Assembly: GCA_963842525.1 (NCBI GenBank)
Contig: CAWJGT010000001.1
Coordinates: forward strand, 608,001-672,000
Direction of reading: 5' to 3'
Length of the DNA stretch: 64,000 nt
DNA from: an uncultured Holophagales bacterium
GTDB taxonomy: Bacteria > Acidobacteriota > Thermoanaerobaculia > Multivoradales > UBA5704
Positions within the stretch are counted from its first letter, which is position 1; every line of letters starts with the position of its first letter. The translations under genes and the position numbers were made by a program. A model generated the notes under the pieces. That model did not search any database. It was not told where the DNA came from and saw nothing but the letters and a program-made list of their open reading frames with translations. This document shows positions 8,920 to 34,095 of the stretch, in pieces.

Positions 8920-9149
8920 CCGCGCCTCCGGGATAGACGATTCCCATTCGGGCTCGCACCCGCTTTTGGGGAAACACCGCAGCACTGGGACTGCTGCCCA
9001 AGTGTACTACAGAACCAACACACTGTACGAACGAATGTGGTGGAATGTTTACCTTACCCCCTGTCCGCCTCTCCCGGTCGGGGGTAGGGACGAGTGGGAG
9101 GTAGGGGTGGTGTTGAATCCCACGCAGTTTCGTGACCGCCGTCATAGAA

Positions 9150-9280
9150 TGCACCGCCGCGGTCTAATCCGGATAAGCGGGATTCACCGGGACACGATCA
9201 TGCGGCTCCTGCGGGTGGCGTGTGGCAAGTGCGAGGCGATCTTGGGCAAGCACCTCCGGGCGGTCCCGGTAAAGGACGGG
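9150..9280 (+). mobile_element. IS1-like transposase fragment
   Basis: RISGIHRDTIMRLLRVACGKCEAILGKHLRAVPVK resembles the HTH-linker of IS1-family transposases; no catalytic domain or IRs seen. Confidence 0.5.
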
Positions 9281-9372
9281 CTCCCTGCGGCGGCAGGAGA
9301 CGGGGGAATTACCAGGCTTTACCGCCGAAGGTACCGTGAAGCGATTCGCCCCCCCCTCGGGCTCATAGGTGC

Positions 9373-9401
9373 TTGACAGGCACCCATGAGGCGGCTAAGA
9401 T
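9373..9401 (+). promoter_or_regulatory. Sigma70-type promoter upstream of the NYN gene
   Basis: TTGACA-17 bp-TAAGAT. Confidence 0.7.
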
Positions 9402-9515
9402 TTAGACGGCGAAGGGGAAAGCTAACCGGGCGCCACAGGAAATCAAAGGAACGTTAGGGGACTTCGGTCCCTGGCGTATTTACTCCGGGTCTGCGAAGCA
9501 CACCGGTTATTTGGG

Positions 9516-10120
9516 ATGACAGAGCCAAGCGCCATTCTTGGGATGGGAACAACTGGTACCATGCGTGCAAAACTTGCGGCGCAAGGATCTGTTTGCCCTT
9601 GATTATGCAGCGATCTCGAAAAATTGGTCGGAGCACGGCAGTGGTGCGGGACTCATTACTACATCGGAGCCCTGAAGCAGCGCATATCGGTTATCGGGAA
9701 CAAAGGCAGTTCTTGTCTCGAATCCAGAACCAAGACGCGCGGATTGTAGTCCCTACGGTAGGATTGAAGAGCGACCGAAGGAGAACGAGCTTTCTACGCG
9801 CTGCTGGCGTACCTCGATACAACTACGCTCTTGATCCTGCATACATGCCGAACTGCGAACCTAGCAGGCAGCACAAGATGGCCGACCTCAAGAGAAAGCG
9901 GCAGACGTCTATCTAGCGGTAGACATGTATCGCCTAGCCGTCAACAACGAATATGATACGGCATATCTGTTGTCGTCCGATGGTGACTCACTCCCGCTGT
10001 ACTGCCGTGCGCGAGCTAGGCAAGAAGGTATTTTGTGCCTCTCGCCCAAGTTATGCCAAGAATCACGCCAACACTTATCACCCTCAAAAAGATTGGTTCA
10101 AGGACGCTACGCTACGCCCG
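9516..10120 (+). pseudogene. NYN (LabA/DUF88, PIN-like) domain protein, multiply frameshifted
   Basis: DGNNWYH, EKAADVYLAVDM and DTAYLLSSDGD acidic motifs, and RELGKKVF, in different frames. Confidence 0.75.
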
Positions 10121-18999: not shown

Positions 19000-19022
19000 C
19001 ACGGCTGAGGAGGGGCATCTGC

Positions 19023-19360
19023 CTACCGATGAAGAGCGATTCCGTCCGAGGGAAAGCGGCGGTCAAAGGAATAGACCCCCTCCGCATCGCGCTCCCGAGC
19101 TTGCGCCCAGATCAGGACATCCGCGAAGGAGTTGCGTTTCGAATTGCGGCAGAGAATGAAAGCCTGGGGAACACGGGGCTTGGAGACCGTGGCGAGCCGA
19201 AGGTTCTGCCGCTGGACCAGTTCCATCAAGATGTCCACGATGTCCGGACGCGACATCTTGTAGAACGAGCCGAGCACATAGGCAGTCTCCATCAGCACGA
19301 GCTCGCTCAGGAGCAGGGTTTCGTCGCTGTCGATGACCTGGGCCGCTCGTTCGGCCATGT
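19023..19360 (-). pseudogene. PIN-domain (VapC-like) toxin, 5'-truncated
   Basis: VLMETAYVL, SFADVLIWA, VYSFDRRF; the N-terminal DT/SN motif was not found. Confidence 0.7.
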
Positions 19361-19418
19361 TGCGACCCCGTACCTGTTGTGGTAGACAGTGACTGACAAT
19401 GACTCTCAGGAGATGTTC

Positions 19419-19646
19419 ATGCCTCAAGTCAGCGCCCGATTCCCTACAGAGCTCGTCGAAGAGATCGACCGGGCCGCGAGTCGATTCCACCGCACCCGTG
19501 CCGAGCTCATCCGGCAGGCCGTCGAGTACTACCTGGACGATGTTGAAGACCTCCAACTCGGTTTGGAGCGGCTCCAAGATCCGTCGGACCCGGTCTTGGA
19601 CTGGGAGGACGTGAAGCGTGAGCTACTCCATCAAGATCAAGGCTAG
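19419..19646 (+). CDS. CopG/RHH antitoxin (RelB-like)
   Basis: QVSARFP...RAELIRQAVEYYL ribbon-helix-helix; overlaps the downstream toxin. Confidence 0.85.
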   Translation: MPQVSARFPTELVEEIDRAASRFHRTRAELIRQAVEYYLDDVEDLQLGLERLQDPSDPVLDWEDVKRELLHQDQG

Positions 19647-20277: not shown

Positions 20278-21259
20278 TCAATCTCCGAAGACGTCCCGGA
20301 GACGCTCGGCGGTCAAAACGCGGTCGCTCCATTCCAGCAGCCGATCCGCATCCGCGGAGCGCACCCGTTCATCGATCTCGGGGGCTAAAGGGCCGAATTT
20401 CAAGCGGAGCTGCCGGAGCAACATTCGGGCCTCTCCCTGCTGGAGCCCCTGCTGGAGTCCCTGCTGGAGTCCCTCTTCGAGACCCTCCTCGCGGATCTGA
20501 CGGTTCCACCGGTCGATGCTTTCTGCCAACATGGTTTCAAGCTCCTCTAAAGTCAGCGTGTCGGCGACCTCCGCCAGCGCAAGTCCGAATCGCGGCAGGA
20601 TGACCTTCTGCAGCCAGGTCTCGAACGCCCGCCGCAAGGAGGCCTCCTCCGGAGGGATGTTCCGCCGCAGCCGATGGACTCCGGTCAGAACATCCGCCCA
20701 ATCGCGGCTCTTCTCGATAAAGAACAGGTCGGCCGCCGGGCTCTTCAGCGATTCCAAAAACTGCCGGTCGTAGGCCGACTCATCCACCAGCCGGTAGCAC
20801 AACCGCGGCCGATAGATCTCCGCCGAGGGGTCCAGATCTCTGACCAGAGAGCCGAGGTCCGTGGCCACCCTCCACGGCTCGCCTCCATTGTAGACGAGGA
20901 CCGCAATGACCGGTGGCAGCTTCTTCCAGGCCACCGGTGGGAGATCGGCCAGCAGGGTCTGGTAGAGGAGGCCCTTATAGACTGTAAAGCGCACCGGCAT
21001 GGAGGGGTCCGGCCGCGACTGGAAGCTCGATGAGGACGTAGATCTCGGCCGGCTCCCCTCCGTCCTTGCGCCGAAACTTCCAGACGATGTCACTCTCGCG
21101 GTTCTCGTGCTCGTCGGAGACATAGGAAGAGCTGACCCGCTCGCCGGAGTCAAAGTCGATGAGCTCGACCCACGGCTCGTCCACGATCTTCTGGAGGAGA
21201 TCCTGGACCATGCGGCGGTGAGTGAAGAAGAGGCGATAGCTGAGGTCGTGTTGTCCCAT
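20278..21259 (-). CDS. Rpn/YhgA-like recombination-promoting nuclease with DUF4351-like tail, frameshift near 21025
   Basis: HDLSYRLFF, RESDIVW, LIE-FQS, PPVIAVLVYNG, GLQQG repeats, LLRQLRLKFG. Confidence 0.9.
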
Positions 21260-21326
21260 GATTTCTCGCGGGACTCTACCACCGATCACCCGAACGTAAG
21301 GCTTGTCCACCAAACGACCAATCCCT

Positions 21327-21440
21327 GCCTACCGATGAGGAGCCATTCGTCCGCAGGGAAGCCGGCGGTCAAAGGAATAGACCCCTCGGGCATCGCCCCA
21401 GCCTCCGAAGCCGGCGACCAGATCAGGACATCCGGGAGGA
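21327..21440 (-). pseudogene. Second, degraded copy of the PIN gene 3' end
   Basis: Aligns by eye to 19021-19130 (GCCTACCGATGA...GGCGGTCAAAGGAATAGACCCC...CAGATCAGGACATCCG). Confidence 0.75.
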
Positions 21441-22258
21441 TCCCCTGAGTCCCTCGGAAACAGCCTCCTCCCTAGGCCTTGCATGCTTCGTCTTCCGCCC
21501 CCTTGACCTCCGGGGTGAGAGGGCGCTCTGATGAGAACAGCCGAGGCTCCCCTTCAGAGAGCGGTTGTGCTCCGCAGTGGAAAGAATCTAATCTCCACGT
21601 GGTCACCTCGGCTCAACTGCGGACTTGCTAGTCGTATCCCGTTTTCAGCCCGAGAGCCTTAATTATTGAGCTTCTCTATGACAACCTGCCCTTTCTGTCC
21701 TCCACCAACGCCTCATGGCAGCACTCCTCAAGAAAGTATAACTCCGAGTGAGGCCAGGCGACCCCAAAGGTATGCGGTGAACAGGAGAGGCAACGGAGAG
21801 GGGCCTCTTCGCCGTCCCATCGCCTCGCCGGTCCTCGACGAGATCGCCCTGGCCTGGGGCTCGCCGGAGAGGTGGCGTAACCGCCGCCGGAGCGCACTCA
21901 CTCGGCTCCCATGACAAGGACGCGGCCATATTTCAATCTCTCGAAATACGTCCCGATCCGGTCTCGTGCGGTCAAGCCCAGTGGTTGGCTCGCCTGAAAT
22001 CTCCGCGCGTCGTTTTGCTGCAGGCTCGGCTCGCCTCTGCGGCCACATTTGTAAGAGCGGTCCACGAACAGGAAGGCGAGAATAGATTGTTAGCCTCCTG
22101 TGGATTAGCCTGCTGGGAGAGGTGCGAGAAATTGGGAGGACGTTTGTTGGTGCACCCTCCTAGGAAAGCCGGCAAGGTGGTTACGGCTTGTCTCGATTGA
22201 GTTGATCGTCCTGGGGGTCATCGGGCTGGCGGCTTCTCCTGACAGCAGGGGGATTCAC

Positions 22259-23370
22259 ATGCTCATTCCTTCGTCTTCATCAGTTACTCACATCTAGAGG
22301 ATGAATTTTTTGGCCTACTTCTGCATCTGATTTCGAAGGCATTGGCGTGTCGGTGTGGCGAGACCAAGAGGGAACCAAGCCAGGCACCCGCATCTTCTTC
22401 AAGCTCAGTCTGAGAACTGCATTACAGACAGCTCAATGATTTCCGCCATGTCTTTCTGGGAATTCACTTCTATCGAATTGGGGTGGTGCTGAGAATATCG
22501 AGCAGCTTACGTTCGCTTCCAGTCAAGAAGGAGCAAGCCTGGAACAACACCCGGACTGAGCAAGCCGGGGCCATAGTGCCGCCGCGGTTGTCGTCGGATA
22601 TCAAACAACACATCGATTTCACCGGCTCGCATCAGGTCGGTTTGAGGCAGCTTGCTGGCTCATTACTCCCGCAGAATACTAGTGATTGCGTGTTCGGAGG
22701 CAGCACGGGGATGGGATCTCGCGTTCAAAAGGCATTTCGGGCGGAAGAACTGAGACGAGGCTTTCCTTCTCTTGGTAATTCCAGGAAGTTATCGATATAT
22801 CGAGCGAAATATCCCGCCTGGGTCGCCCGACAGGATCGCCAGTTGGCCTCGATGCAGGCGTAGCCGGTGAGATGCCCTGAGAGGAGGTCAGGGGCAACGT
22901 ACATTTGGTCTATATATTAGAAGATAGTGATGGTCCTGATCGTGTCGTCGGCGAACCCGCTATGGGGCGTGGCACAGAATATCCGAAACCGGTTTGCGGT
23001 ACGTCCTACTGAGGCCTGAAGCGCTATTCGTTAGCAGACCGATGTCGTCTGGAAGTAAAGCAGACGCTTTGCAGGTATCTTTCTCCAGTTCATGAACGGT
23101 GTCCCGAGCTCAGGTGTCTGTTAGGCAGGCTCAGTCTTTACAGCATAGATCAGGTTGCTGATTTTGTCGCGCAGGGTACCGGCGTATCCATTCTTCCTGG
23201 TGCTATTGTAGAAGCTGATGCTGTAGCCCAAGGTAAGCTGTGGGCGGTGGAGTTACCGGGCGATTCAAGTCGCTCCTGGTACGGCCTATGGAATATAAAC
23301 CGCTGGTGAACGCTGGCAGCGGAGCACTTGGTAAGTCTGTTCAAAGACTTCGGCCTACGGCTTTCCTGCA
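22259..23370 (+). pseudogene. TIR domain followed by a LysR substrate-binding-like domain, heavily frameshifted
   Basis: FVFISYSH (22270), GIGVSVWRDQ and IVPPRLSSDIKQHIDF (TIR); MVLIVSSANPL and SIDQVADFVAQGTGVSILP...VAQGKLWAV (LysR PBP2). Confidence 0.6.
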
Positions 23371-23389
23371 CTGGGAGTTGGCGAGCCAG

Positions 23390-24250
23390 CTTTGAGGATT
23401 CGGGATCTCAACTCCTTCGTATTTGATGGACCTTCACCCGGATATTAGCTTTTAAAATTTCCTTCTTCCAGTCCAGGATTCTCTCCGTAAACCGAAGATC
23501 GTCGCTCCGCGGCCGAGCAAAAGGCACTGGAACCTCAGTAACAAAGCGGCCCTCGCTTTAGAACGACCACCCTGTCCGCGAAAGATATTGCCTCCTCAAT
23601 AAAAGCGTGTGAAAAAGATGATGGTCTTTGGCGAGTCCTTCGAGATCGAGATAAGCTGTTTCTGCATCCTCTCGCGGGTATGCGAATCCCAGTGCTGCGA
23701 AGGTTTTTTATTTGATCAGCACAGCATGCTCCGGGATTGGGGGCGAGAGCCCGGGCCAGGGCGACGCGCTAAATTTGTCCCGCTCACAACTTATGTGGGT
23801 ATTGGCGCGCGTAGGTCCTCTGATCCCCGATACGCTCCAGGAGGCCTCGCAGACCCGCTCCCTTTCGCGGACCTCATCGGCATGCCACGTATTTGCAACG
23901 CGATGTTGACCTCCGGTCTCGAACCAAGGGAACAAGTGGTTGCTCTGTGAGGCTTAGTGGATGAGCATTCCTATTACTTCTACCTCCCCCTGGAAGGAAA
24001 TGAACCGCGCGAGCGCGTGTTCAGGAGAAGTTCTCACCTCCCCTGCGCCCTGATCTGCCTACGACAATGAGTTGCCCGCTTAATTGCTTCCCTGGGAAAA
24101 CAAAAATGACATCCCGCAAGTAGGGCTGATTCTGGCCATAGGTCACGGAAAAGACCGGCAGGCGCGCAAACGACAACAGATTCTACTGTTCGCGGCCATC
24201 GCCCGTAGGCCTTCATCCAAGGAAACGTGAGCCGCACAAATGTTGCGAAG
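23390..24250 (-). pseudogene. Nitrate/sulfonate-type ABC ATPase remnant
   Basis: Fragments LFPW, QYPHK-LSG, IEEAI-FADRVVVL, VPVPFARPRSDDLRF; very degraded. Confidence 0.6.
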
Positions 24251-24299
24251 GCGGCATCGGGGAGTCAACCAGTGGCGCCGAGCACCGCCAAGGCCTCAA

Positions 24300-25004
24300 T
24301 CATCCGGTCGATCTGATAAGCCATATATGTGATTCGAACCGGAAACCGATTCCGGATGATGTGCGAGTGGATTCATTGAACGTACAGATGATGACGTATG
24401 CGACTGCGATCGAATTCCGCAGCCCTGCCACGATCGCTGGAAGCGCTGCCGGAAGGACGACATAGGCCAGAACCGCAGCGCGCGATCGGGTCAGCAAGCG
24501 GGCGCTCCATAAGTACTCGATCGGGATTCTCGCTGCGCCGAGGTGCGTGTTGATCCAGGTCGGGAAGAACACGGCGAAGCTGGTCGAAAAGATCTTCGCG
24601 CCGTCGCCGATCCCGAACCAGACGATCACCAGGGGGATGATCGCCACTGGCGGCAGCGGACGCAAAACCTGGATTACAGGCCCAAAGATGGCGTCGGCGG
24701 TCCGGCTTCGCCCCGTCGACAGCCCGGCGGCCATTCCCATCCCTCCCCCAACTAGGAAGCCGACCAGCAGACGCAGAGAACTGGCTTCGACGTCCCTCCA
24801 TAACTCCCCCGTGCGGCTCCAGGCCAGCAAGGCGGTCACCACCTTCGACGGCGGAGGAAAGAGCGCGGGGTTGCTCACGGCATACCGCGAAAGCAACTCC
24901 CAAAGCACAAGCAGGAAGGCGATCGGAACTCCCCAGAGAAGGAAGCGGCCCGCTCCACCGAAAAACGCGGGACGGGCCTCCGCCCGTTGGCTTGAAATCC
25001 CCAT
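24300..25004 (-). CDS. SsuC/TauC-type ABC permease (3' end degraded)
   Basis: LFPPPSKV, LRPLPPVAIIPLVIVWFGIG, VVLPAALP. Confidence 0.88.
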   Translation of the reverse strand: MGISSQRAEARPAFFGGAGRFLLWGVPIAFLLVLWELLSRYAVSNPALFPPPSKVVTALLAWSRTGELWRDVEASSLRLLVGFLVGGGMGMAAGLSTGRSRTADAIFGPVIQVLRPLPPVAIIPLVIVWFGIGDGAKIFSTSFAVFFPTWINTHLGAARIPIEYLWSARLLTRSRAAVLAYVVLPAALPAIVAGLRNSIAVAYVIICTFNESTRTSSGIGFRFESHIWLIRSTG

Positions 25005-25024
25005 CTCAAGACCGCTCCCGGGTT

Positions 25025-26053
25025 TTACTTTAGCTGGACCAGGTTCGGATCGACTTCGCGAAGCAGTTCTGCATCGACGATTGCCCGGAAATCAGGGACT
25101 GGCGTACCCTGGGGAACCGTACCCTTTTCGATCGCCCACTTCGCCTCGGCTGTGGTGAGCTCGATAAGAAGAGGAGTCAGCGCAGGGCGGAACACAAAGT
25201 TTGGCCAGATATCGTCCACCACCTGCCGATCCAGCTTGGTATACCGAGTCACGATCGCTTTCGCGTCGTCAGGCCGCTGCGCCACGAAGACCGCGGCGTC
25301 CTTCAGCCCTCGCAGGAACGCCACCACGTCCGCCCGCCGCGCGGTGATCGTCTTCGGCATGACACTGGCGACGTAAAGCTCCCGAGTAGATGCTCGGGTC
25401 GGCGAACGTAACGCCCTTGTCTCCCATGGAGCGCTCGGCGAAGCGGGCGAACGGATCGAAGATCGCGATGGCGTCGACGGAACCGCTGGCGAGGGAAGCC
25501 GGCATGTCTTCCGGCTTCTGGCTGATAAGCTCTACTTCCGTGGCCGCGATCCCGTACTCTTTAAGAAAATTATACGTGAAAAACTCGGGACCGCACCGAA
25601 TGATGTGGCGAGCTTACGCTTCTTGGCCTTGAAGTACTTCAAGGCGTCCTCGAGGCCCGGCTCTCGGCGAGCCACAACGCGGACCTCATTGATCGTGCGT
25701 TCAACGACCTGCCCCACGACGCGGAAATTGCTACCCTGGAGCGTCGAAAGCGCTACCGGCACCTCGCCCGAGACAGCCACGTCGAGAGAGCCTCCAGAAA
25801 AGCCTGCAGGGCGAACTTTCCGGCCGTGAACTCCTTGAGCTCCACGTCCACGCCATGCTTGTCGAAGAACCTTGGTCTTCCGATACCATCAGCAGCGCCA
25901 TAGCAGGTGAAACTTGGATACCCACGGAGAGCTTCGGAGTTTGCGAGCTCGATCGGGAATTTCTTTCTCGTCCTCCCTAGCCTTCTGGCATCCCAAAACT
26001 CCAAGCACGGCCGTCAGGAGCAAGCCGACGGTGATTCGTAAGCGAGGTTTCAT
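25025..26053 (-). CDS. SsuA/NMT1-type ABC substrate-binding lipoprotein, frameshifted
   Basis: GAGGAG RBS, VLGC lipobox, FFDKHGVDVELKEFTAG, MPASLASGSVDAIAIFDPF. Confidence 0.82.
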
Positions 26054-26080
26054 ATTATGCTCCTCAATGTAAGCATTTCG

Positions 26081-26473
26081 TTAAGGTATAGATTCAAGAT
26101 AAGACAGCATCTGCGATGCCGTCGGGAACGGCTTCTTTCCAAGAATACCCCTTACACCAGGAGCATCCACGTACCGGCTTTCCAGCCATCTCCTTGATGC
26201 CCTATCGTCGACAAGTTCGGAGCACACCACGACAGGAATCAACGAGACAATCCGAAAAAGTTTGGTGATTACAGCCAATCCCTCAAGTTCGCTGTTCCCG
26301 AATCTGCTATCAATTATTGCTAACTGAGGACCAAAAGCTCGGATTCTTTCCTGCTCTTCATCCAGGGTGGGCGAGGAAGGAGGGAGAACAGAGCAACCAT
26401 GATCTCGGAATGTCCGCGCGAACCGAATAATGTCCTCAGGTTCATCGTCAATCACTAGTATCTTGGCTTCCAT
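26081..26473 (-). CDS. Stand-alone response regulator receiver
   Basis: ILVIDDE, AIIDS, VVVCS, GKKPF. Confidence 0.8.
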   Translation of the reverse strand: MEAKILVIDDEPEDIIRFARTFRDHGCSVLPPSSPTLDEEQERIRAFGPQLAIIDSRFGNSELEGLAVITKLFRIVSLIPVVVCSELVDDRASRRWLESRYVDAPGVRGILGKKPFPTASQMLSYLESIP

Positions 26474-28076
26474 TTCTCGTTTCCCCTTGAGATAATTTTT
26501 GACTCTCGCGCACGAACACGACAAAATGCGCTCCTGGCCACTGCGTCTTATCAGCCGACTCACTTTGCTCATCGAGAAACATCTTTCCACCAAGGTTCTC
26601 TATGGCGCGTCGCGAAAGGTAAAGGCCGTAACCGTGCGCGGTACTTTGGCCATCCTGGACAGCCTTACCAGAACCGGGCTTAAAAAGATGGGGTCTAACC
26701 ATCGGGTCGATACCTGGACCATCATCTCGGACGCCAAAGCGGAATCCTGAAATTGGCTCGGCAACCTTTTCTACAAGAACCTCCACCTTATTGTCTGCAA
26801 AGTGCCACGCGTTGGCCAGAAGATTATCCATGACCTCCCAGAAGGTAGTTTTGTCCACCCACATTTCCCAGTCAGAGGGTATAACCTCCTCTTGGCCTGC
26901 TGGTGAGCTCAAGCCCCTTGGCTTCATATTTTTTACTATTGATGAACAATAAAGTGGCAACAAATTCTCGAACATTGACATCTGCTGCCCTCACCTTGGA
27001 GAAGGCATCAAGGTCGTCCCTAGCGAAGGTAAGCATTAGATCTTCTGCGCTTTGGCGAAGTGCCATAACTCTTTCTTCAATCTTTCTGAAAGACTCTATA
27101 GCGCTTCCGACGTGGGCGAGGAGCGACTCGAGAGGCGTCTGGAGCCCATGCGCCAACATCTGCACAAAAGCGCCCCTCGCCCGATTGAGTTCCTCAGCCA
27201 ATCTGGCGCGCTCGTCACACCTGCCTCCTCACGGAGGCGAACACCGCTCAGAAGAGAGTGCGCAACTAACTGTAGCAAGCGCGTCTTCGTCGGGTCAAAC
27301 TCATTCTCTGGTGGTGGTCCAATAAAAGCGATCCCGCCTATCAAATTCTCTCCAGCATGGACAGGCGCGAGAACAACTAAGCGCGGTAATTCGATTATAC
27401 CCTTGCGAAGCGCGATTAACGTGACGCGGCAAATGTTGCGAAGAAGATTAAGCGCTCCAGCGGCAGAAAACGCTTCCGCTTCTCCACTCCAGACCGCCAA
27501 CCGCATCGCAATCTCTTCGACTACTATTGGAGTCTGCCTCAGGCATGCCTGAACGCAGTCCTGCTCAATTGACTTCTCAGGCTCGGGCCCACGAGTAACT
27601 CGCTGAAGCTCAGAAATAATCGATGACGGTATGACAAGGTGATTAGGAGCCGGCCTTTGACTCACGGAATCGTTGGACGAGAGCAAAATCACGGCCGGAT
27701 TGCCGCGCATTTCTTGACCTTTGAACCGCAAATACGGAGGCACGCTCCTTTGGTTGACCTCAAGGGAATCGGAATGCTGCGCCAATAAGCTTTCAGGCTC
27801 TACAGGGTACGATATGCGAAACCACTCGGCACTCGGCTCGCTCTCACTGACAGGATGCCTCGTCGCGTAATGCAATGTAAGCCAATCAACTTTACGATTG
27901 CGCATCGCCCCAGCCATGGCCCGATCTGAGAGTATACTGCGTAGCTGATCGACAAGCCATGTTTTGTAGACCACGTGCGGCCGTTCAAATTCATTCCCAA
28001 AGCCAGCAAAGGCAGAAGAGATTAAAGCTAACGCATCGAGAACAAGGTCGGTAAAGCTTGCAGACTTCTCGCTCAC
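26448..28076 (-). CDS. Cytoplasmic sensor histidine kinase, frameshifted
   Basis: H-box LAHGLQTPL, N-box DNLLANA, G1 DDGPGI, G2 GYGLYLS; uncharacterised N-terminal region. Confidence 0.85.
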
Positions 28077-28930
28077 ACTACTCTCCTCAATAACTGAGCT
28101 TCATCATGAGCATCCTCTAGCTCATTTAGAAGCACATCCGCAAGCTCCGTCGGCGTTACGTCGCACGTCTGGAGAATTGCCAGGCCGAAATTTAAACAGT
28201 ATGCTGCAAAGAAGAACGCCATGGCGACTTCCAGCACCACAATCCAATTAGCCAACGGAGAATTCCCCGGATGAATATCACCGTACCCGACAGTGCCAGC
28301 TGTGACAACACTGAAATAGAGCGCTTCCGTCAAGGAAACAGAAGACGGACCGTTAGGGCACACAACAAAGGCATGACCATCCGTAAGGACATGTGCTGAG
28401 AGGTACAGCGACCCAAAGCAGAATATTAGAGAAGTTCCCGCAAGAAGAAGCGAAAGAAAGAACTGGCGACTTTTTGCTAGCCTATAGATCCGTATGTGAC
28501 TCTTGAAATCAGTTCTTGCCTCTGCTATAAAATCCGGAAAGTTTTCGGGGATGAGCCTCTGATGCCTTGCGTCATCACATGCATCACGAAGGTAATGTAC
28601 TTCCTCTGCCGGGAGTGTGAGGAGTATGTCTTCGTATGCAAAAAACGCTTTTCCTGGTACGTAAACTGGTGGCTCGCATAAGGCAGCGAGAGTGGAAAAG
28701 AACGACCGCCTCGTTTTAACGATTGTATGGGTACTCGGAATCGGACGAAAAAAGCGAAACGCACTGACGACTATGGTACCAATTACAATCAACCCCAGAG
28801 TAAGACAAATTACCGCAGTACTGCGCATGATTACTGCGTTCATGCTAGAAAAATAACCAATGACAGGAATTCCCAAAAGCGCCACGAGAGCCAATCCGAG
28901 ACGAACAATTTGATATAGATAGATCTTCAC
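28073..28930 (-). CDS. Potassium channel (Ion_trans_2) with extra N-terminal TM pair
   Basis: ALYFSVVTAGTVGYGDIHP selectivity filter between two TM helices. Confidence 0.88.
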   Translation of the reverse strand: MKIYLYQIVRLGLALVALLGIPVIGYFSSMNAVIMRSTAVICLTLGLIVIGTIVVSAFRFFRPIPSTHTIVKTRRSFFSTLAALCEPPVYVPGKAFFAYEDILLTLPAEEVHYLRDACDDARHQRLIPENFPDFIAEARTDFKSHIRIYRLAKSRQFFLSLLLAGTSLIFCFGSLYLSAHVLTDGHAFVVCPNGPSSVSLTEALYFSVVTAGTVGYGDIHPGNSPLANWIVVLEVAMAFFFAAYCLNFGLAILQTCDVTPTELADVLLNELEDAHDEAQLLRRVV

Positions 28931-29373
28931 TTTAACCCTCGAACAAACCCGAGAAGAGCTTCGGCGGACGGAAAATCAGGAAATTTGCCGAAGGCGGCAA
29001 CGACACCCTGCTCTCGAAGGGCCCGCCCTCTTTCTGCTTCCCCCATGGGCGAATGTGTAAAAAGCTTCGAGCAAACGACAATTGGAGGCACACCGCAGGC
29101 AAATTCTATCTCTCGTATTTGATCGATGAGCCGGTATCCATCCTCTCGCGATTCACCAATAACTAGGTCAGTTACAATCAAATCTGGACAGAACACAAGC
29201 AGAGCAGCTCGCGCACTCTCATCCAGAACAGGCCGCCTAAGCAAGAGCAAATCCACGGTCGAATTCTGGAATACGCTTTTGAATCTAACAAGAGAGTCTC
29301 TCGAATCGTCGAAAATCACGATTCGAATGGCAGACTTGGTTTCCATGGCTTGCATCGTTCCCGTACTTGCCAT
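28927..29373 (-). CDS. Stand-alone receiver domain protein (paralogue 1)
   Basis: IVIFDDS, IVTDLVIG, DGYRLI, IVVCSK, FGKFP. Confidence 0.82.
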   Translation of the reverse strand: MASTGTMQAMETKSAIRIVIFDDSRDSLVRFKSVFQNSTVDLLLLRRPVLDESARAALLVFCPDLIVTDLVIGESREDGYRLIDQIREIEFACGVPPIVVCSKLFTHSPMGEAERGRALREQGVVAAFGKFPDFPSAEALLGFVRGLK

Positions 29374-29801
29374 CAGAAGGCAGTTTTACGATCGAGAGAA
29401 AGAAATTCCTGTGCCGAGGGGAGGTCTGGATACTTTCCGAAAGCAGCCTTCACTCCTGGTTCTGCAAGGGCACGCGCCTTTTCCCCTTCGCCCATGGGAG
29501 TTTTGGTAATCAATTTTGAGCAAACTACAATAGGAGGAATTCCGCCACGAAACGGCACCTCCCGAAGCTGGGCTATAAGACGGTAGCCATCTTCTCGCGA
29601 CTCTCCCATCACGAGGTCTACAATGATGAGGCTGGGCTGAAATGCAACAAGTGCTGTGCTAATGTTAACATCCACCTCAGGTCGCCTGAAATAGAGAAGT
29701 TCACAACCGCTCTCGTTGAAAGCATTTGCGTAGCGCTTTAGCGCATCCCGAGAGTCATCGAAGATAACAACGCATTTCGGGATTTCAAGTGGCGTTGTCA
29801 T
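29373..29801 (-). CDS. Stand-alone receiver domain protein (paralogue 2)
   Basis: VVIFDDS, IIVDLVMG, DGYRLI, IVVCSK, FGKYP; clearly homologous to its neighbour. Confidence 0.82.
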   Translation of the reverse strand: MTTPLEIPKCVVIFDDSRDALKRYANAFNESGCELLYFRRPEVDVNISTALVAFQPSLIIVDLVMGESREDGYRLIAQLREVPFRGGIPPIVVCSKLITKTPMGEGEKARALAEPGVKAAFGKYPDLPSAQEFLSLDRKTAF

Positions 29802-30831
29802 CTTCTACCGCCCTTGTCGATGAAACCTGTTCCACGCCTTTCACCCAGGGCAACACCCGCCGGAGTGTCCGCTCCAAGCCCTCCTTCAGGGTCAGGCTCA
29901 CGCTGGGACACGCCAAGCAGGCTCCGCGTAGGCGGACGCGAACAACACCCTCTTCGGCAGAGACGAGCTCGACACCACCGCCATCCGCCTCCATGGCGGG
30001 ACGCAGGGTTTCCAGAACCCTCTCCACTTGGTCGGCGGCGGAACTATCCTCCAAGGTTGCAGTCTCGGCGATGGGGCGGACGCAGCGGAAGCCGACGTTC
30101 GGCGCCGTGGCGTGCGGATCTAGAGCACCTCGGTTCGCCGTGCGCAGCCGGAAGGGCTGGATGACATTCCAGGCTCCTCCGCGGCGGGCCCGATGAGTTC
30201 CAGCGCTTTCGACTGGACTCATCGAGGGATCGACGGAGTAGGCATCCGGCTGGTACCAGTTCTCGCACCACTGCCAGACGTTGCCAACCAGGTCATAGAG
30301 GCCGAAGTCGTTCGTAGGGAATGCGCGCACTGGCGTCGTGGGTGGAATTTCCGCCGGTTGGCGAGCGAAATTGCACTGCGTTCCATCCGGCTCCTCGGAA
30401 CCCCACGGGTAAGCCTGCTGCTCGCGACCCGCCCTTGCCCCCCGCTCCCATTGGGCTTCCGTCGGTAGGCACTTGCCGGCCCAGCGGGCATAGGCGGATG
30501 CATCCTCCCAACTGACGAGAAGGACTGGATGTTCCAACCTATCGGGCGTTGCATAGCTGCGCCATGACAGGCCAGCGATAGCCCGATAGCGGCCAGCGCG
30601 ATATCCCCACGCCGCCCCTGCACGCTCTGCCTCCGTGACATGATTGGTGGCCTTCACGAATTCGCCAAACTGACAGTTTGTAACGAGGGTCTCGTCCATC
30701 CAGTAGGCATCCAAGTAGACTTCGTGAACCGGCCGCTCGAACTCCCCCCCTGCCTCACTACCCATGAGGAAAGCTCCAGCAGGAACTAAGACCATCCCGG
30801 ACAAATCGGAAGCTGCTTCAATTTTTGCCAT
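29785..30831 (-). CDS. FGE-sulfatase (SUMF1-like) domain fused to a NifU C-terminal domain
   Basis: FLMGS, LPTEAQWE, GNVWQWC, GFRCV, then LRPAMEADGGGVELV...LRGACLACP; GAAGGAG RBS. Confidence 0.9.
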   Translation of the reverse strand: MAKIEAASDLSGMVLVPAGAFLMGSEAGGEFERPVHEVYLDAYWMDETLVTNCQFGEFVKATNHVTEAERAGAAWGYRAGRYRAIAGLSWRSYATPDRLEHPVLLVSWEDASAYARWAGKCLPTEAQWERGARAGREQQAYPWGSEEPDGTQCNFARQPAEIPPTTPVRAFPTNDFGLYDLVGNVWQWCENWYQPDAYSVDPSMSPVESAGTHRARRGGAWNVIQPFRLRTANRGALDPHATAPNVGFRCVRPIAETATLEDSSAADQVERVLETLRPAMEADGGGVELVSAEEGVVRVRLRGACLACPSVSLTLKEGLERTLRRVLPWVKGVEQVSSTRAVEDDNAT

Positions 30832-31422
30832 ATATTCTCCTTCAGCCCAAGAAATGCCCATGGAGTCCATGCGCACATCTCTATAGGTAGGAACGTAGAT
30901 GCTCTGTGCGTAGTACCGCCACACTATCTTAAAATTTCTTAGTATGCAAGGAGCGGCCGAGACGCCTGTAGATTAGGCGCCAGTCGTCCTTTCAAGCGTT
31001 TCCTTAACATAGATCCTTACAGCCTGAAAACTTCCAGATCCTTCCTCCTCGTCCCTGCTCGAAGCCCCTCCCGAGGCCATTCCGGCCCCGCGTACTCCTA
31101 AGACAGATCGCCACCTGTTATCTGTGGACACGCGTACGCGCAGTTTGTTTAGGCTCGGGCGGCCTCGGCCTCGGGAATAGGAGTCCTCGATCGCAGGCTC
31201 TTGAGGCGACCGCGTCGCTGGACCTCGCCCTGCTGGCGAGTTTTTGCGCGACGGAAAGGCTTGGGACTTTAGGGCAGGCTTCCCCCTGCCGGCAGGTCAA
31301 GGGGGAGGTCCAGGTCAGCGCACCGGCAAGCCTCCTCCCCCTTGTGGCACCTTTTCAGAAGAGGCGGCTCTCTCCCGGCCGCGGCGGCCGCCGAGGCGCA
31401 GCCGCCTGAAAAGGAGCCTCCT

Positions 31423-31835: not shown

Positions 31836-33157
31836 ATGGCCGACCTCCACATCACGCGGGATCTCCTACGCGTTGTCTCCCGAGGAGAGATTCCACCTCG
31901 GCTGCTGACCCAGCTTGGCGTGCAGCACCTGATGACCCTCTGCCCGCACTGCCGGGCGGAGATCCTGGCTTGGCAGCGAGAGCGCGAGGCCGGTCCTCCG
32001 GGCTACGACCGGGCGTTCCGCGTCCTGCCGGCTCTTCTCGGGCGGCATGCAGAACCGGCGGACCGCCAGCAGGTGGAGGCCGAGCGCGATGCGAGGGCGC
32101 TCCTCGATCTGCCTCGGGAGGAGCGGATCGAGAAGGTTCGCCGCGCGAGGGTCCGTTTCCGCGGCATGGCCCTGGTCCGGCCCTCCTTGACGAGAGCCGG
32201 CGGCAGATCCCCGCAGACCCGGCCGAGTCCTTTCATCTGGCGGAGCTCGCTCGCACCGTCGTCCACCATTCGCCCGCGGCGCCTGACTCTTTCGACCTGA
32301 CCGCGCTCGCCGCGGCGTGCATGGGCAATGCCCGCAGGGCGGCGGGTGCTCTCCGGGAGGCCGAACGTCTTTTCGGGCATGCCCGCTATGTCATCACCCA
32401 TCATGGAGTGACCGAGACCGGGGTCCTGGCCAGGATCGACGAGCTGGAAGGGTCCCTGCGGAAGGACCAGAGGATCTTTGACCGCGCCGAGGAGCTGCTG
32501 ACCCGATCCGCCATGCTGTATCGGGTGATCGGCGCCACGATCGAGACCGCTCGCGTTCTTCTCAATGTGGGCGATGTCTTCTTCTACCGAGGAATGCCGG
32601 ATCAAGCCATCGCGGTTCTCCGCACGGCCCTCGAGGAGATCCCAGCGGACACCCAACCGAGGCTGTTCCTGAACGGCCGGCACAATCTGGCCCTCTATTT
32701 GATCGAGTCCGGCCGGTACGACGAGGCGGCCGATGCTCTCGACACGGACGAGGACCTCTATCGCCGCTTTCCGGAGCCGTGGACGCAGCTCCGGCTCGTG
32801 TGGCTGCGCGGCAAGATCGCGGTGGGACGGGGAGAGGCCGAGGTGGCCGAGCGGAGCCTGCTCGAGGCCCGCGACGGCTTCCTCGGCCTGGGGATCGGCT
32901 ATGACGCCGCGATGGTGTCGCTGGACCTCGCCCTCGTCTATCTCCGCCAGGAGCGGAACGCCGAGATCCTCCGCCTCGCCGAGGAGATGTTCCCGATCTT
33001 CGAGGCCCAGGACGTCCACCGGGAAGCCATCGCCGCTCTCCAGCTCTTCCAGGAGGCCGCCCGCCGGCAGGAGGTCACGGCCGAGCTGGTGCGCGATCTG
33101 GCGGTGTACTTCCGGGAGGCTCGGATGGACCCATCGCTTCGGTTTCGGGAGCCCTGA
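31836..33157 (+). CDS. TPR protein with N-terminal H-x4-CxxC (zf-HC2-like) motif, frameshift near 32185
   Basis: GGAGGA RBS; HLMTLCPHC; helical repeats (MGNARRAAG, LLNVGDVFFYRG, HNLALYLIESGRYDEA). Confidence 0.85.
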
Positions 33158-33817: not shown

Positions 33818-34030
33818 TCACTCATGCTCCTGCTCCAGCAGCAAAGCTGCTGAGGTCCCAAGGTCGGTGGCGGGCCGTCGGGAGAGGCGTTCGTGCCATT
33901 CGTAGCGAGCCATCTCGCGTTCGAGGGCCGCCAGGGCGATGTCGCTGATCGTGCGCTTGTGCTGCTGCGCATAATTCCGCAGGCGTTGATGCAGGGCGTC
34001 CGGTAGATTCTTGACTTGGAGGTTTGCCAT
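33818..34030 (-). CDS. FitA-like RHH antitoxin (orphan)
   Basis: MANLQVKNLPDALHQRLR...RTISDI. Confidence 0.8.
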   Translation of the reverse strand: MANLQVKNLPDALHQRLRNYAQQHKRTISDIALAALEREMARYEWHERLSRRPATDLGTSAALLLEQEHE

Positions 34031-34095
34031 AGCATGATGTTGGCATGCTCGCGGCATGCAGTCCAGGTACACCGACTCACGCGCGTCCCCCAGCT

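Follow-up and report, generated by a model that had tools for sequence, protein, structure and literature searches.

To our knowledge, the outputs of two-component systems are almost always transcription, motility switches or second-messenger enzymes. Among the described systems closest to the locus reported here, the single-domain regulator CheY acts by contact with FliM, and KdpD/KdpE controls K+ uptake, with KdpE as a DNA-binding regulator and Kdp itself as a P-type ATPase. The locus lies in a stretch of 64,000 nucleotides from an uncultured Holophagales bacterium (assembly GCA_963842525.1, contig CAWJGT010000001.1, positions 608,001 to 672,000), and the whole of this stretch is referred to as the window. 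On the minus strand of the window, at 23,408-30,831, nine co-directional genes are found that code for a histidine kinase, three receivers, a K+ channel, a fusion of a domain resembling the formylglycine-generating enzyme (FGE) with a NifU/Nfu domain, and an importer of the ATP-binding cassette (ABC) type. We regard these genes as probably one copy of a cassette that is very rare and has been transferred horizontally, and that in this genome is partly decayed.

On the sequence evidence the nine-gene set is a conserved and very rare cassette. All nine genes recur, with order and orientation unchanged, on a metagenome contig of 13.5 kb (L003), where each is a single open frame and the kinase has 538 amino acids (aa). 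To obtain frameshift-corrected identities the L003 proteins were aligned frameshift-aware against the window DNA. The values are 60.6% for the FGE-NifU protein, 57.0% and 58.8% for receivers 1 and 2, 48.3% for the channel, 62.0% for the kinase, 54.8% for receiver 3, and 69.9%, 55.8% and 50.0% for the binding protein, the permease and the ATPase of the importer. The DNA of L003 matches the genome of the window solely inside the island, and the flanks of L003 match other contigs weakly; the two copies of the cassette therefore sit in different contexts. One kinase homologue and one channel homologue both report a longest contig of 6,895 bp, which suggests a third syntenic locus. A first-pass annotation, made from the letters of the window alone, had named nine co-directional genes with this domain content as a unit. 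Pfam and the L003 orthologues bear this out, and the synteny in L003 together with the kinase relatives indicates that the genes do co-occur elsewhere. One must keep in mind, as a point against generalizing, that the comparison including DNA comprises one locus, L003.

The rarity is seen with the channel, the kinase and receiver 2. Among 5.8 billion proteins the channel has 2 close relatives (48% and 53% identity), and the N-terminal 310 residues of the kinase have four, all of 524-542 aa, besides the fragment from the window itself. When 1.84 billion representative proteins were searched exhaustively with a profile, 4 of them reached E<1e-30 and 34 reached E<1e-10. Next in similarity come about 20 channels of ~270 aa, among them P0010-P0022, which form a loose group with the same layout at ~25% identity. 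When metagenomes were scanned with the channel, 79 out of the 80 kept loci were generic pore matches and the sole full-length relative was the one in L003; a scan of genome contigs gave just a 28-residue match in the pore (L001). Within 401 genomes of the same phylum a full-length channel match occurs in the window's own genome alone, and a protein search with receiver 2 found nothing beyond the window's own two receivers.

The block is foreign to its host in composition. The genome comprises 9.95 Mb in 34 contigs at 67.8% GC (standard deviation 4.3% over 1-kb windows), compared to 50.3% GC at positions 26000-29800 of the window, and just 0.18% of the 1-kb windows of the genome fall below 50% GC. 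The GC content at third codon positions (GC3) is 0.455-0.73 in the island genes versus 0.905 +/- 0.029, with a minimum of 0.845, in 60 alignments of host orthologues. The shift towards AT, which the first-pass annotation had described as visible against the flanks, is thus extreme relative to the host. The core of approximately 50% GC is flanked by the GC-richer FGE-NifU and ABC genes. Since the same pattern recurs in L003, where the GC content of the cassette is below that of its own flank, we take it to be a property of the cassette and not a result of amelioration in the host. Of the matches listed for 30 relatives, 5 of them from the same genus, none falls in the island, with a further 77 weaker matches outside the list, and the flanks and repeated elements are matched. 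Atypical composition, absence of the island from these listed matches in close relatives and presence of the same block in another context (L003) support the horizontal acquisition of the block, as had been proposed for it. The composition of the window is mixed overall, and a second low-GC patch is found at 9001-10000 of the window (56.8% GC amid 71-74% GC).

The coordinates of the nine genes are given in Table 1. The open reading frame (ORF) of the FGE-NifU protein stays open as far as a GTG at 30924. Overlapping stops and starts had been noted for the first six genes, and all five junctions do overlap, in order by 17, 1, 4, 4 and 26 nucleotides (nt). The two start/stop overlaps of 4 nt join receiver 2 to the channel and the channel to the kinase, and the receiver 2/channel overlap is present in the window and in L003. 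The binding-protein gene is preceded by a gap of 27 nt. Promoter-like sites (6 versus 4.0 +/- 2.2) and terminator-like sites (15 versus 9.1 +/- 3.0) are near chance. In L003 and in the 20-kb island locus, riboswitches and other Rfam families had 0 matches at E<=0.1, which gives no clue to a substrate.

Table 1. Genes of the cassette in reading direction, with positions in the window
Feature	Position	Strand	Evidence	State in this copy
FGE-like domain, C-terminal NifU/Nfu fusion	29785..30831	-	Pfam FGE-sulfatase 203 bits, NifU 77.9 bits (cut-off 27)	intact
Receiver 1, single-domain CheY-like, 142 aa	29373..29801	-	Response_reg 24.0 bits (cut-off 30.2), active-site residues	intact
Receiver 2, receiver 1 paralogue, 148 aa	28927..29373	-	Response_reg 16.9 bits (cut-off 30.2), active-site residues	intact
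K+ channel, four transmembrane helices, 285 aa	28073..28930	-	Ion_trans_2 39.3 bits (cut-off 22.5)	intact
Soluble histidine kinase: GAF-like region, DHp with H-box, HATPase_c	26448..28076	-	HATPase_c 53.8 bits (cut-off 26.4)	frame broken
Receiver 3, divergent single-domain, 130 aa	26081..26473	-	Response_reg 21.4 bits (cut-off 30.2)	intact
NMT1/SsuA-like substrate-binding protein	25025..26053	-	frameshift-aware alignment to L003	probable pseudogene
ABC permease (BPD_transp_1)	24199..25004	-	Pfam and L003 alignment	1 frameshift, 1 in-frame stop
ABC ATPase	23408..24206	-	L003 alignment	pseudogene

In the six receivers of both loci the acidic pair, the phospho-acceptor Asp, the Ser and the Lys are invariant (D22, D23, D69, S102 and K130 in the numbering of receiver 2). 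The receivers are divergent members of their family, as all three of the window stay below the Pfam cut-off, and receiver 3 of L003 alone passes it (32.9 bits). No output domain is found by Pfam in any of the window receivers, and the kinase contains no segment that resembles a transmembrane (TM) helix: its maximum hydropathy over 19 residues is 1.57-1.62, compared to 2.2-2.65 in the channel. Both features had been read from the letters alone and hold.

The motifs of the H-box and of HATPase_c are present in the kinase once the frame is corrected. HisKA scores 17.3 bits, which is below its cut-off of 26.9, and the H-box aligns residue for residue with the intact relatives. To KdpD the kinase bears a resemblance solely via the generic kinase core (33 bits versus a cut-off of 1123). 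Pfam gave no match in the sensor region. Among its structural matches GAF domains are recurrent (Z 5.8-6.6 over 143-177 residues), and GAF-family sets, which make up 16 and 7 of the 30 hits in the Atlas, are the commonest named neighbours there. With reserve, the modelled sensor region could be called GAF-like. Against this stand the low confidence of the sensor model, with a predicted local distance difference test (pLDDT) value of 60.4, and the fact that all GAF matches remain below Z 8, under the level counted as clear.

In the channel, two TM helices at the N-terminus are followed by a cytoplasmic linker of helical structure and then by a pore of two TM helices with a TVGYGD filter. The filter is present in all 3 sequences that were aligned, and the homologue P0009 has TVGFGD. 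In the model of the channel (pLDDT 81.6) the pore alone matches KirBac3.1, over ~80-100 alignment columns at 28-32% identity, and Foldseek found no match at E<=0.001 for the N-terminal TM helices and the helical linker. A Kir cytoplasmic domain was sought as well: there is no IRK_C hit, and the protein ends ~30 residues past M2. The hit of the L003 channel to the IRK TM family scores 17.5 bits, below the cut-off of 22.7.

Over its whole length the FGE-like domain can be aligned with solved FGE structures, with the best matches among bacterial and human enzymes (E about 1e-41 to 1e-43). FGE carries a catalytic cysteine pair in its C-terminal segment. In the alignment to 6muj, 2q17 and 8aru the first of these cysteines corresponds to V in our protein and the second to a gap. 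As both catalytic cysteines are absent, the domain is judged not to be a working formylglycine-generating enzyme. The NifU domain keeps its CxxC in the window and in the L003 orthologue. The fusion named by the first-pass annotation thus exists at the level of its domains, and the catalytic function that the name implies does not follow. Among Atlas clusters of at least 50 members near the FGE-like domain, none carries both FGE and NifU domains.

The importer had been called sulfonate-type. At family level this stands, since Pfam NMT1 passes in the L003 binding protein (83.7 bits versus 20.5). The assignment to a particular transporter does not: the ABC proteins of L003 have their closest matches in SsuA, SsuC/TauC/SaoP and TauB/SaoA, and none of these matches reaches its curated cut-off (TIGR01728 119.2 versus 163.5 bits, SsuC 123.6 versus 347, TauB 184.5 versus 357). 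Permease and ATPase resemble betaine/choline importers as well, at lower scores.

A possible mechanism for the intact form of the cassette can be outlined as follows. The soluble kinase would sense a cytoplasmic ligand by its GAF-like region, and the FGE-like/Nfu protein may contribute to this sensing. The kinase would then phosphorylate all three receivers. As the receivers lack a DNA-binding output and the domain scans of the window and of L003 found neither a transcription factor nor another obvious receiver target in the cassette, they would act by protein-protein contact or as phosphate sinks. For receivers 1 and 2, whose genes and that of the channel would be translationally coupled, the most likely site of action would be the helical cytoplasmic part of the channel, and receiver 3 could serve as a sink or act on the importer.

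The contact between receiver 2 and the channel was modelled by co-folding the receiver with a tetramer of channel residues 85-285, in three runs and with three controls. The scores are 0.37, 0.40 and 0.37, compared to 0.00, 0.00 and 0.08 in the controls, which the tool classifies as weak support. The runs share at least 70% of their contacts, and the pLDDT of the partner is at least 74. The mark of the tool is reached by 116 out of 157 solved complexes and by 2 out of 215 mismatched pairs; scores of 0.60 or less comprise 18 of the 157 and both mismatches. Two aspects of the modelling speak against a direct contact. The alignments were shallow (15 and 6 rows) and a tetramer was used, so that the calculation lies outside the calibration of the tool, and the score is in the range that the tool rates as more often wrong than right unless a strong prior exists. 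Direct action of a receiver on the channel is doubtful in our estimate, with a chance well short of even. The gating of the channel as the output of the system, as it had been suggested before, is consistent with the score of 0.37 versus 0.08 for the best control and with the genetic linkage, and finds no support beyond these.

A different function of the same genes is possible, if rather unlikely. In this case the nine genes would be co-transcribed and the receivers would not touch the channel. They would serve as sinks or as shuttles for phosphate, or have the ABC importer or proteins of the host as their targets, and channel and importer would be co-expressed as parts of, for example, an ionic/osmotic or a sulfur-nutrient response module. 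Single-domain receivers do act on diverse partners; one paper reports a phosphoglycosyl transferase whose activator is a single-domain response regulator (PMC12802240). The lower-scoring resemblance of permease and ATPase to betaine/choline importers would fit as well. K+ uptake paired with the import of a solute is familiar as an osmotic response. In addition, the co-fold passes at the weak level. On the other hand, start/stop overlaps tie receiver 2 to the channel and the channel to the kinase, the co-fold score exceeds all three controls by at least 0.29, and the cassette offers no transcription factor or other obvious target on which the receivers could act instead.

The specific proposal that the intact cassette is a phosphorylation-gated K+ channel, in which a GAF-type kinase controls receivers that dock on the channel to open or close it, and the FGE-like/Nfu protein and the importer supply the signal, is tentative, and we consider it unlikely in this complete form.

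We now turn to the state of the cassette in this genome. In the kinase gene two shifts (27215 and 26892) and 0 in-frame stops were found, dividing it into three frames (27096-28076, 26872-27201 and 26448-26981). The shifts bracket the DHp/H-box segment, leaving the DHp out of frame, and reading from the start of the kinase gene runs into three stops between them. The gene of the binding protein has five frame changes (25945, 25877, 25797, 25594 and 25382) and 0 in-frame stops. The permease gene has a frameshift at 24341 and an in-frame stop at 24267, located in its last ~50 codons. The ATPase gene contains 9 frameshifts and 4 in-frame stops, two of these stops inside the signature motif; the Walker A motif has lost its lysine, and changes affect Walker B and the H-loop as well. 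In the genes of the FGE-NifU protein, the three receivers and the channel there is no internal lesion. Altogether 17 breaks occur in the downstream 3.85 kb (~4.4 per kb) and 0 in the upstream 3.65 kb.

The background of such breaks was estimated with 121 long ORFs as references, which come from 400 kb of a genome that belongs to the same family and is well assembled. After removal of 63 ORFs that had no hit of at least 55% identity over at least 60% of their length, 58 orthologue-like genes were kept. They contain 16 frame breaks in 88,959 aligned nt (0.18 per kb) and 6 in-frame stops. With respect to single genes, 48 have no break, 6 have one, 2 have two and 2 have three, with a maximum of 1.93 per kb. 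Compared to this, the density in the kinase gene (1.25 per kb) and that in the permease gene are inside the error range, the binding-protein gene (4.8 per kb) is well outside, and the ATPase gene (12 per kb) is far outside.

These numbers also bear on the idea that all frame breaks of the island are assembly errors and that the living organism has a complete, working cassette, which is highly unlikely. Several observations nevertheless weigh against decay and in favor of error. The gene rpoB is frameshifted in the assembly (contig C9, about 670,515, outside the window), and the background itself is not free of breaks and in-frame stops, with clusters of up to 3 breaks per gene. Two or more breaks are present in 4 out of the 58 control genes, which makes the lesions of kinase and permease indistinguishable from error. 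In the binding protein, the lack of in-frame stops and the highest corrected identity of the set (70%, with 62% for the kinase, which has no in-frame stop either) mean that the five shifts could be the result of a locally poor consensus. Moreover, neither the breaks of the island nor those of the background are located at homopolymers: the mean context is 2.65 for the island, 2.53 for the background and 2.58 for random positions, which provides no separation. Against a general explanation by error stands the density of breaks in the downstream part of the island, with none upstream, when it is compared to the mean and the maximum of the 58 control genes. A further argument is the ATPase gene, as errors of insertion and deletion (indels) do not produce its in-frame stops and its substitutions in Walker A, Walker B and the H-loop.

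We return to partial decay of a foreign cassette. The ATPase gene is read as a true pseudogene and the binding-protein gene is probably one. As the former call is clear and the latter probable, the importer of this copy can be taken as non-functional. The double frame break of the kinase would be either a recent inactivation or a sequencing error, and the lesions of kinase and permease may both be errors. A programmed frameshift is not favored as an explanation for the kinase: the two shifts differ in kind, there is no slippery or homopolymer context, and the four relatives are single-frame. Pseudogene calls anywhere in this genome must allow for the indel errors of the assembly.

With regard to the first-pass annotation, its observations were largely right, and the four broken genes escaped it. 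Gene set and overlaps stand, and with 4 out of 9 genes not intact in the assembly the operon is not intact here. Of its interpretation, horizontal transfer and co-occurrence are supported, and the redox or Fe-S input from the FGE-NifU protein is conjectural.

That the cassette is an anti-phage or abortive-infection module, with the K+ channel as a membrane-depolarising effector under the control of kinase and receivers, is hardly credible, for although genes of toxin-antitoxin type surround both loci (PIN and a FitA-like antitoxin in the window, HicA in L003) and the cassette is mobile and patchily distributed, 0 out of its 8 non-ATPase proteins match in PADLOC, the ATPase hits there represent generic ABC/P-loop similarity, and a defence system is not expected to hold a binding-protein-dependent importer.

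The surroundings of the cassette are a variable, junk-rich stretch. In the window 0 tRNA genes and no integrase were found, and the cassette is not bordered by att-like repeats. A C-terminal fragment of a LysR substrate-binding domain (23013-23309, plus strand) lies immediately downstream of the ATPase remnant. It is part of a 2-kb stretch (21300-23400) that is nearly devoid of long ORFs, and it looks like further gene debris. An Rpn/YhgA-like putative transposase (Transposase_31 and DUF4351) is split across two frames at 20278-21313 on the minus strand; copies of it with 72-86% DNA identity occur in the same genome (C19, C8) and in many relatives. A direct repeat of ~110 nt (19019-19126 and 21325-21437, 82-83% identity, spacing ~2.3 kb) brackets this transposase-like gene. 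On the other side of the cassette the gene of a TPR-repeat protein (31970-33157, plus strand) belongs to a multi-copy family with many DNA matches of 65-75% in the genome and in relatives. The toxin-antitoxin-type genes are a PIN gene (19023-19577, minus strand) and the gene of a FitA-like ribbon-helix-helix antitoxin (33818-34072, minus strand) in the window, and a HicA gene in L003 (12391-12672, plus strand), directly downstream of the cassette. For this genome the block amounts to a passenger of foreign origin that has partly decayed, located in a variable region.

If the proposed action on the channel is true, a set of kinase and receivers hard-wired to a K+ channel would represent a new class of two-component output that works without transcription, and it would provide a simple, testable model of how bacteria signal rapidly by electrical or ionic means. 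As a small, self-contained unit that is intact in L003, the cassette is most suitably studied in a form of the L003 type. The combination had not been recognised as a described system when the window was first annotated. In agreement with this, our full-text literature searches found no description of a receiver-controlled K+ channel or of an FGE/NifU fusion, and PADLOC gave no match beyond generic ATPase similarity.

Compared to the known systems from which its parts are familiar, the cassette differs in each of them. With SsuABC/TauABC of the NitT/TauT family it shares, in the L003 orthologues, an NMT1/SsuA-like binding protein, an SsuC/TauC/SaoP-like permease and a TauB/SaoA-like ATPase, but the L003 hits are all below the curated cut-offs and the genes of the window are broken. 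With FGE and its cysteine-less paralogues (pFGE/SUMF2, PvdO, PorK/GldK) it has a full-length domain of the FGE-sulfatase fold in common, whereas its own domain lacks both catalytic cysteines and is fused to a NifU/Nfu domain. The pore module with its TVGYGD filter is that of the two-TM channels KirBac and KcsA; unlike these, the channel of the cassette has no Kir cytoplasmic, RCK or cyclic-nucleotide domain and carries a helical linker and, at the N-terminus, two additional TM helices. The genetic linkage of a histidine kinase system to K+ transport is reminiscent of KdpD/KdpE, but the cassette has no DNA-binding domain and its transporter is a channel. The likeness to the CheY-type single-domain regulators is that the receivers (130-148 aa) stand alone, lack an output domain, have all residues of the phospho-acceptor pocket and are encoded next to the kinase presumed to serve them. 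The cassette departs from these in that two of its three window receivers score well below the Pfam receiver cut-off, that three receivers accompany one non-hybrid soluble kinase, and that the proposed target is a K+ channel. In this sense it is a rare new variant within two-component signalling.

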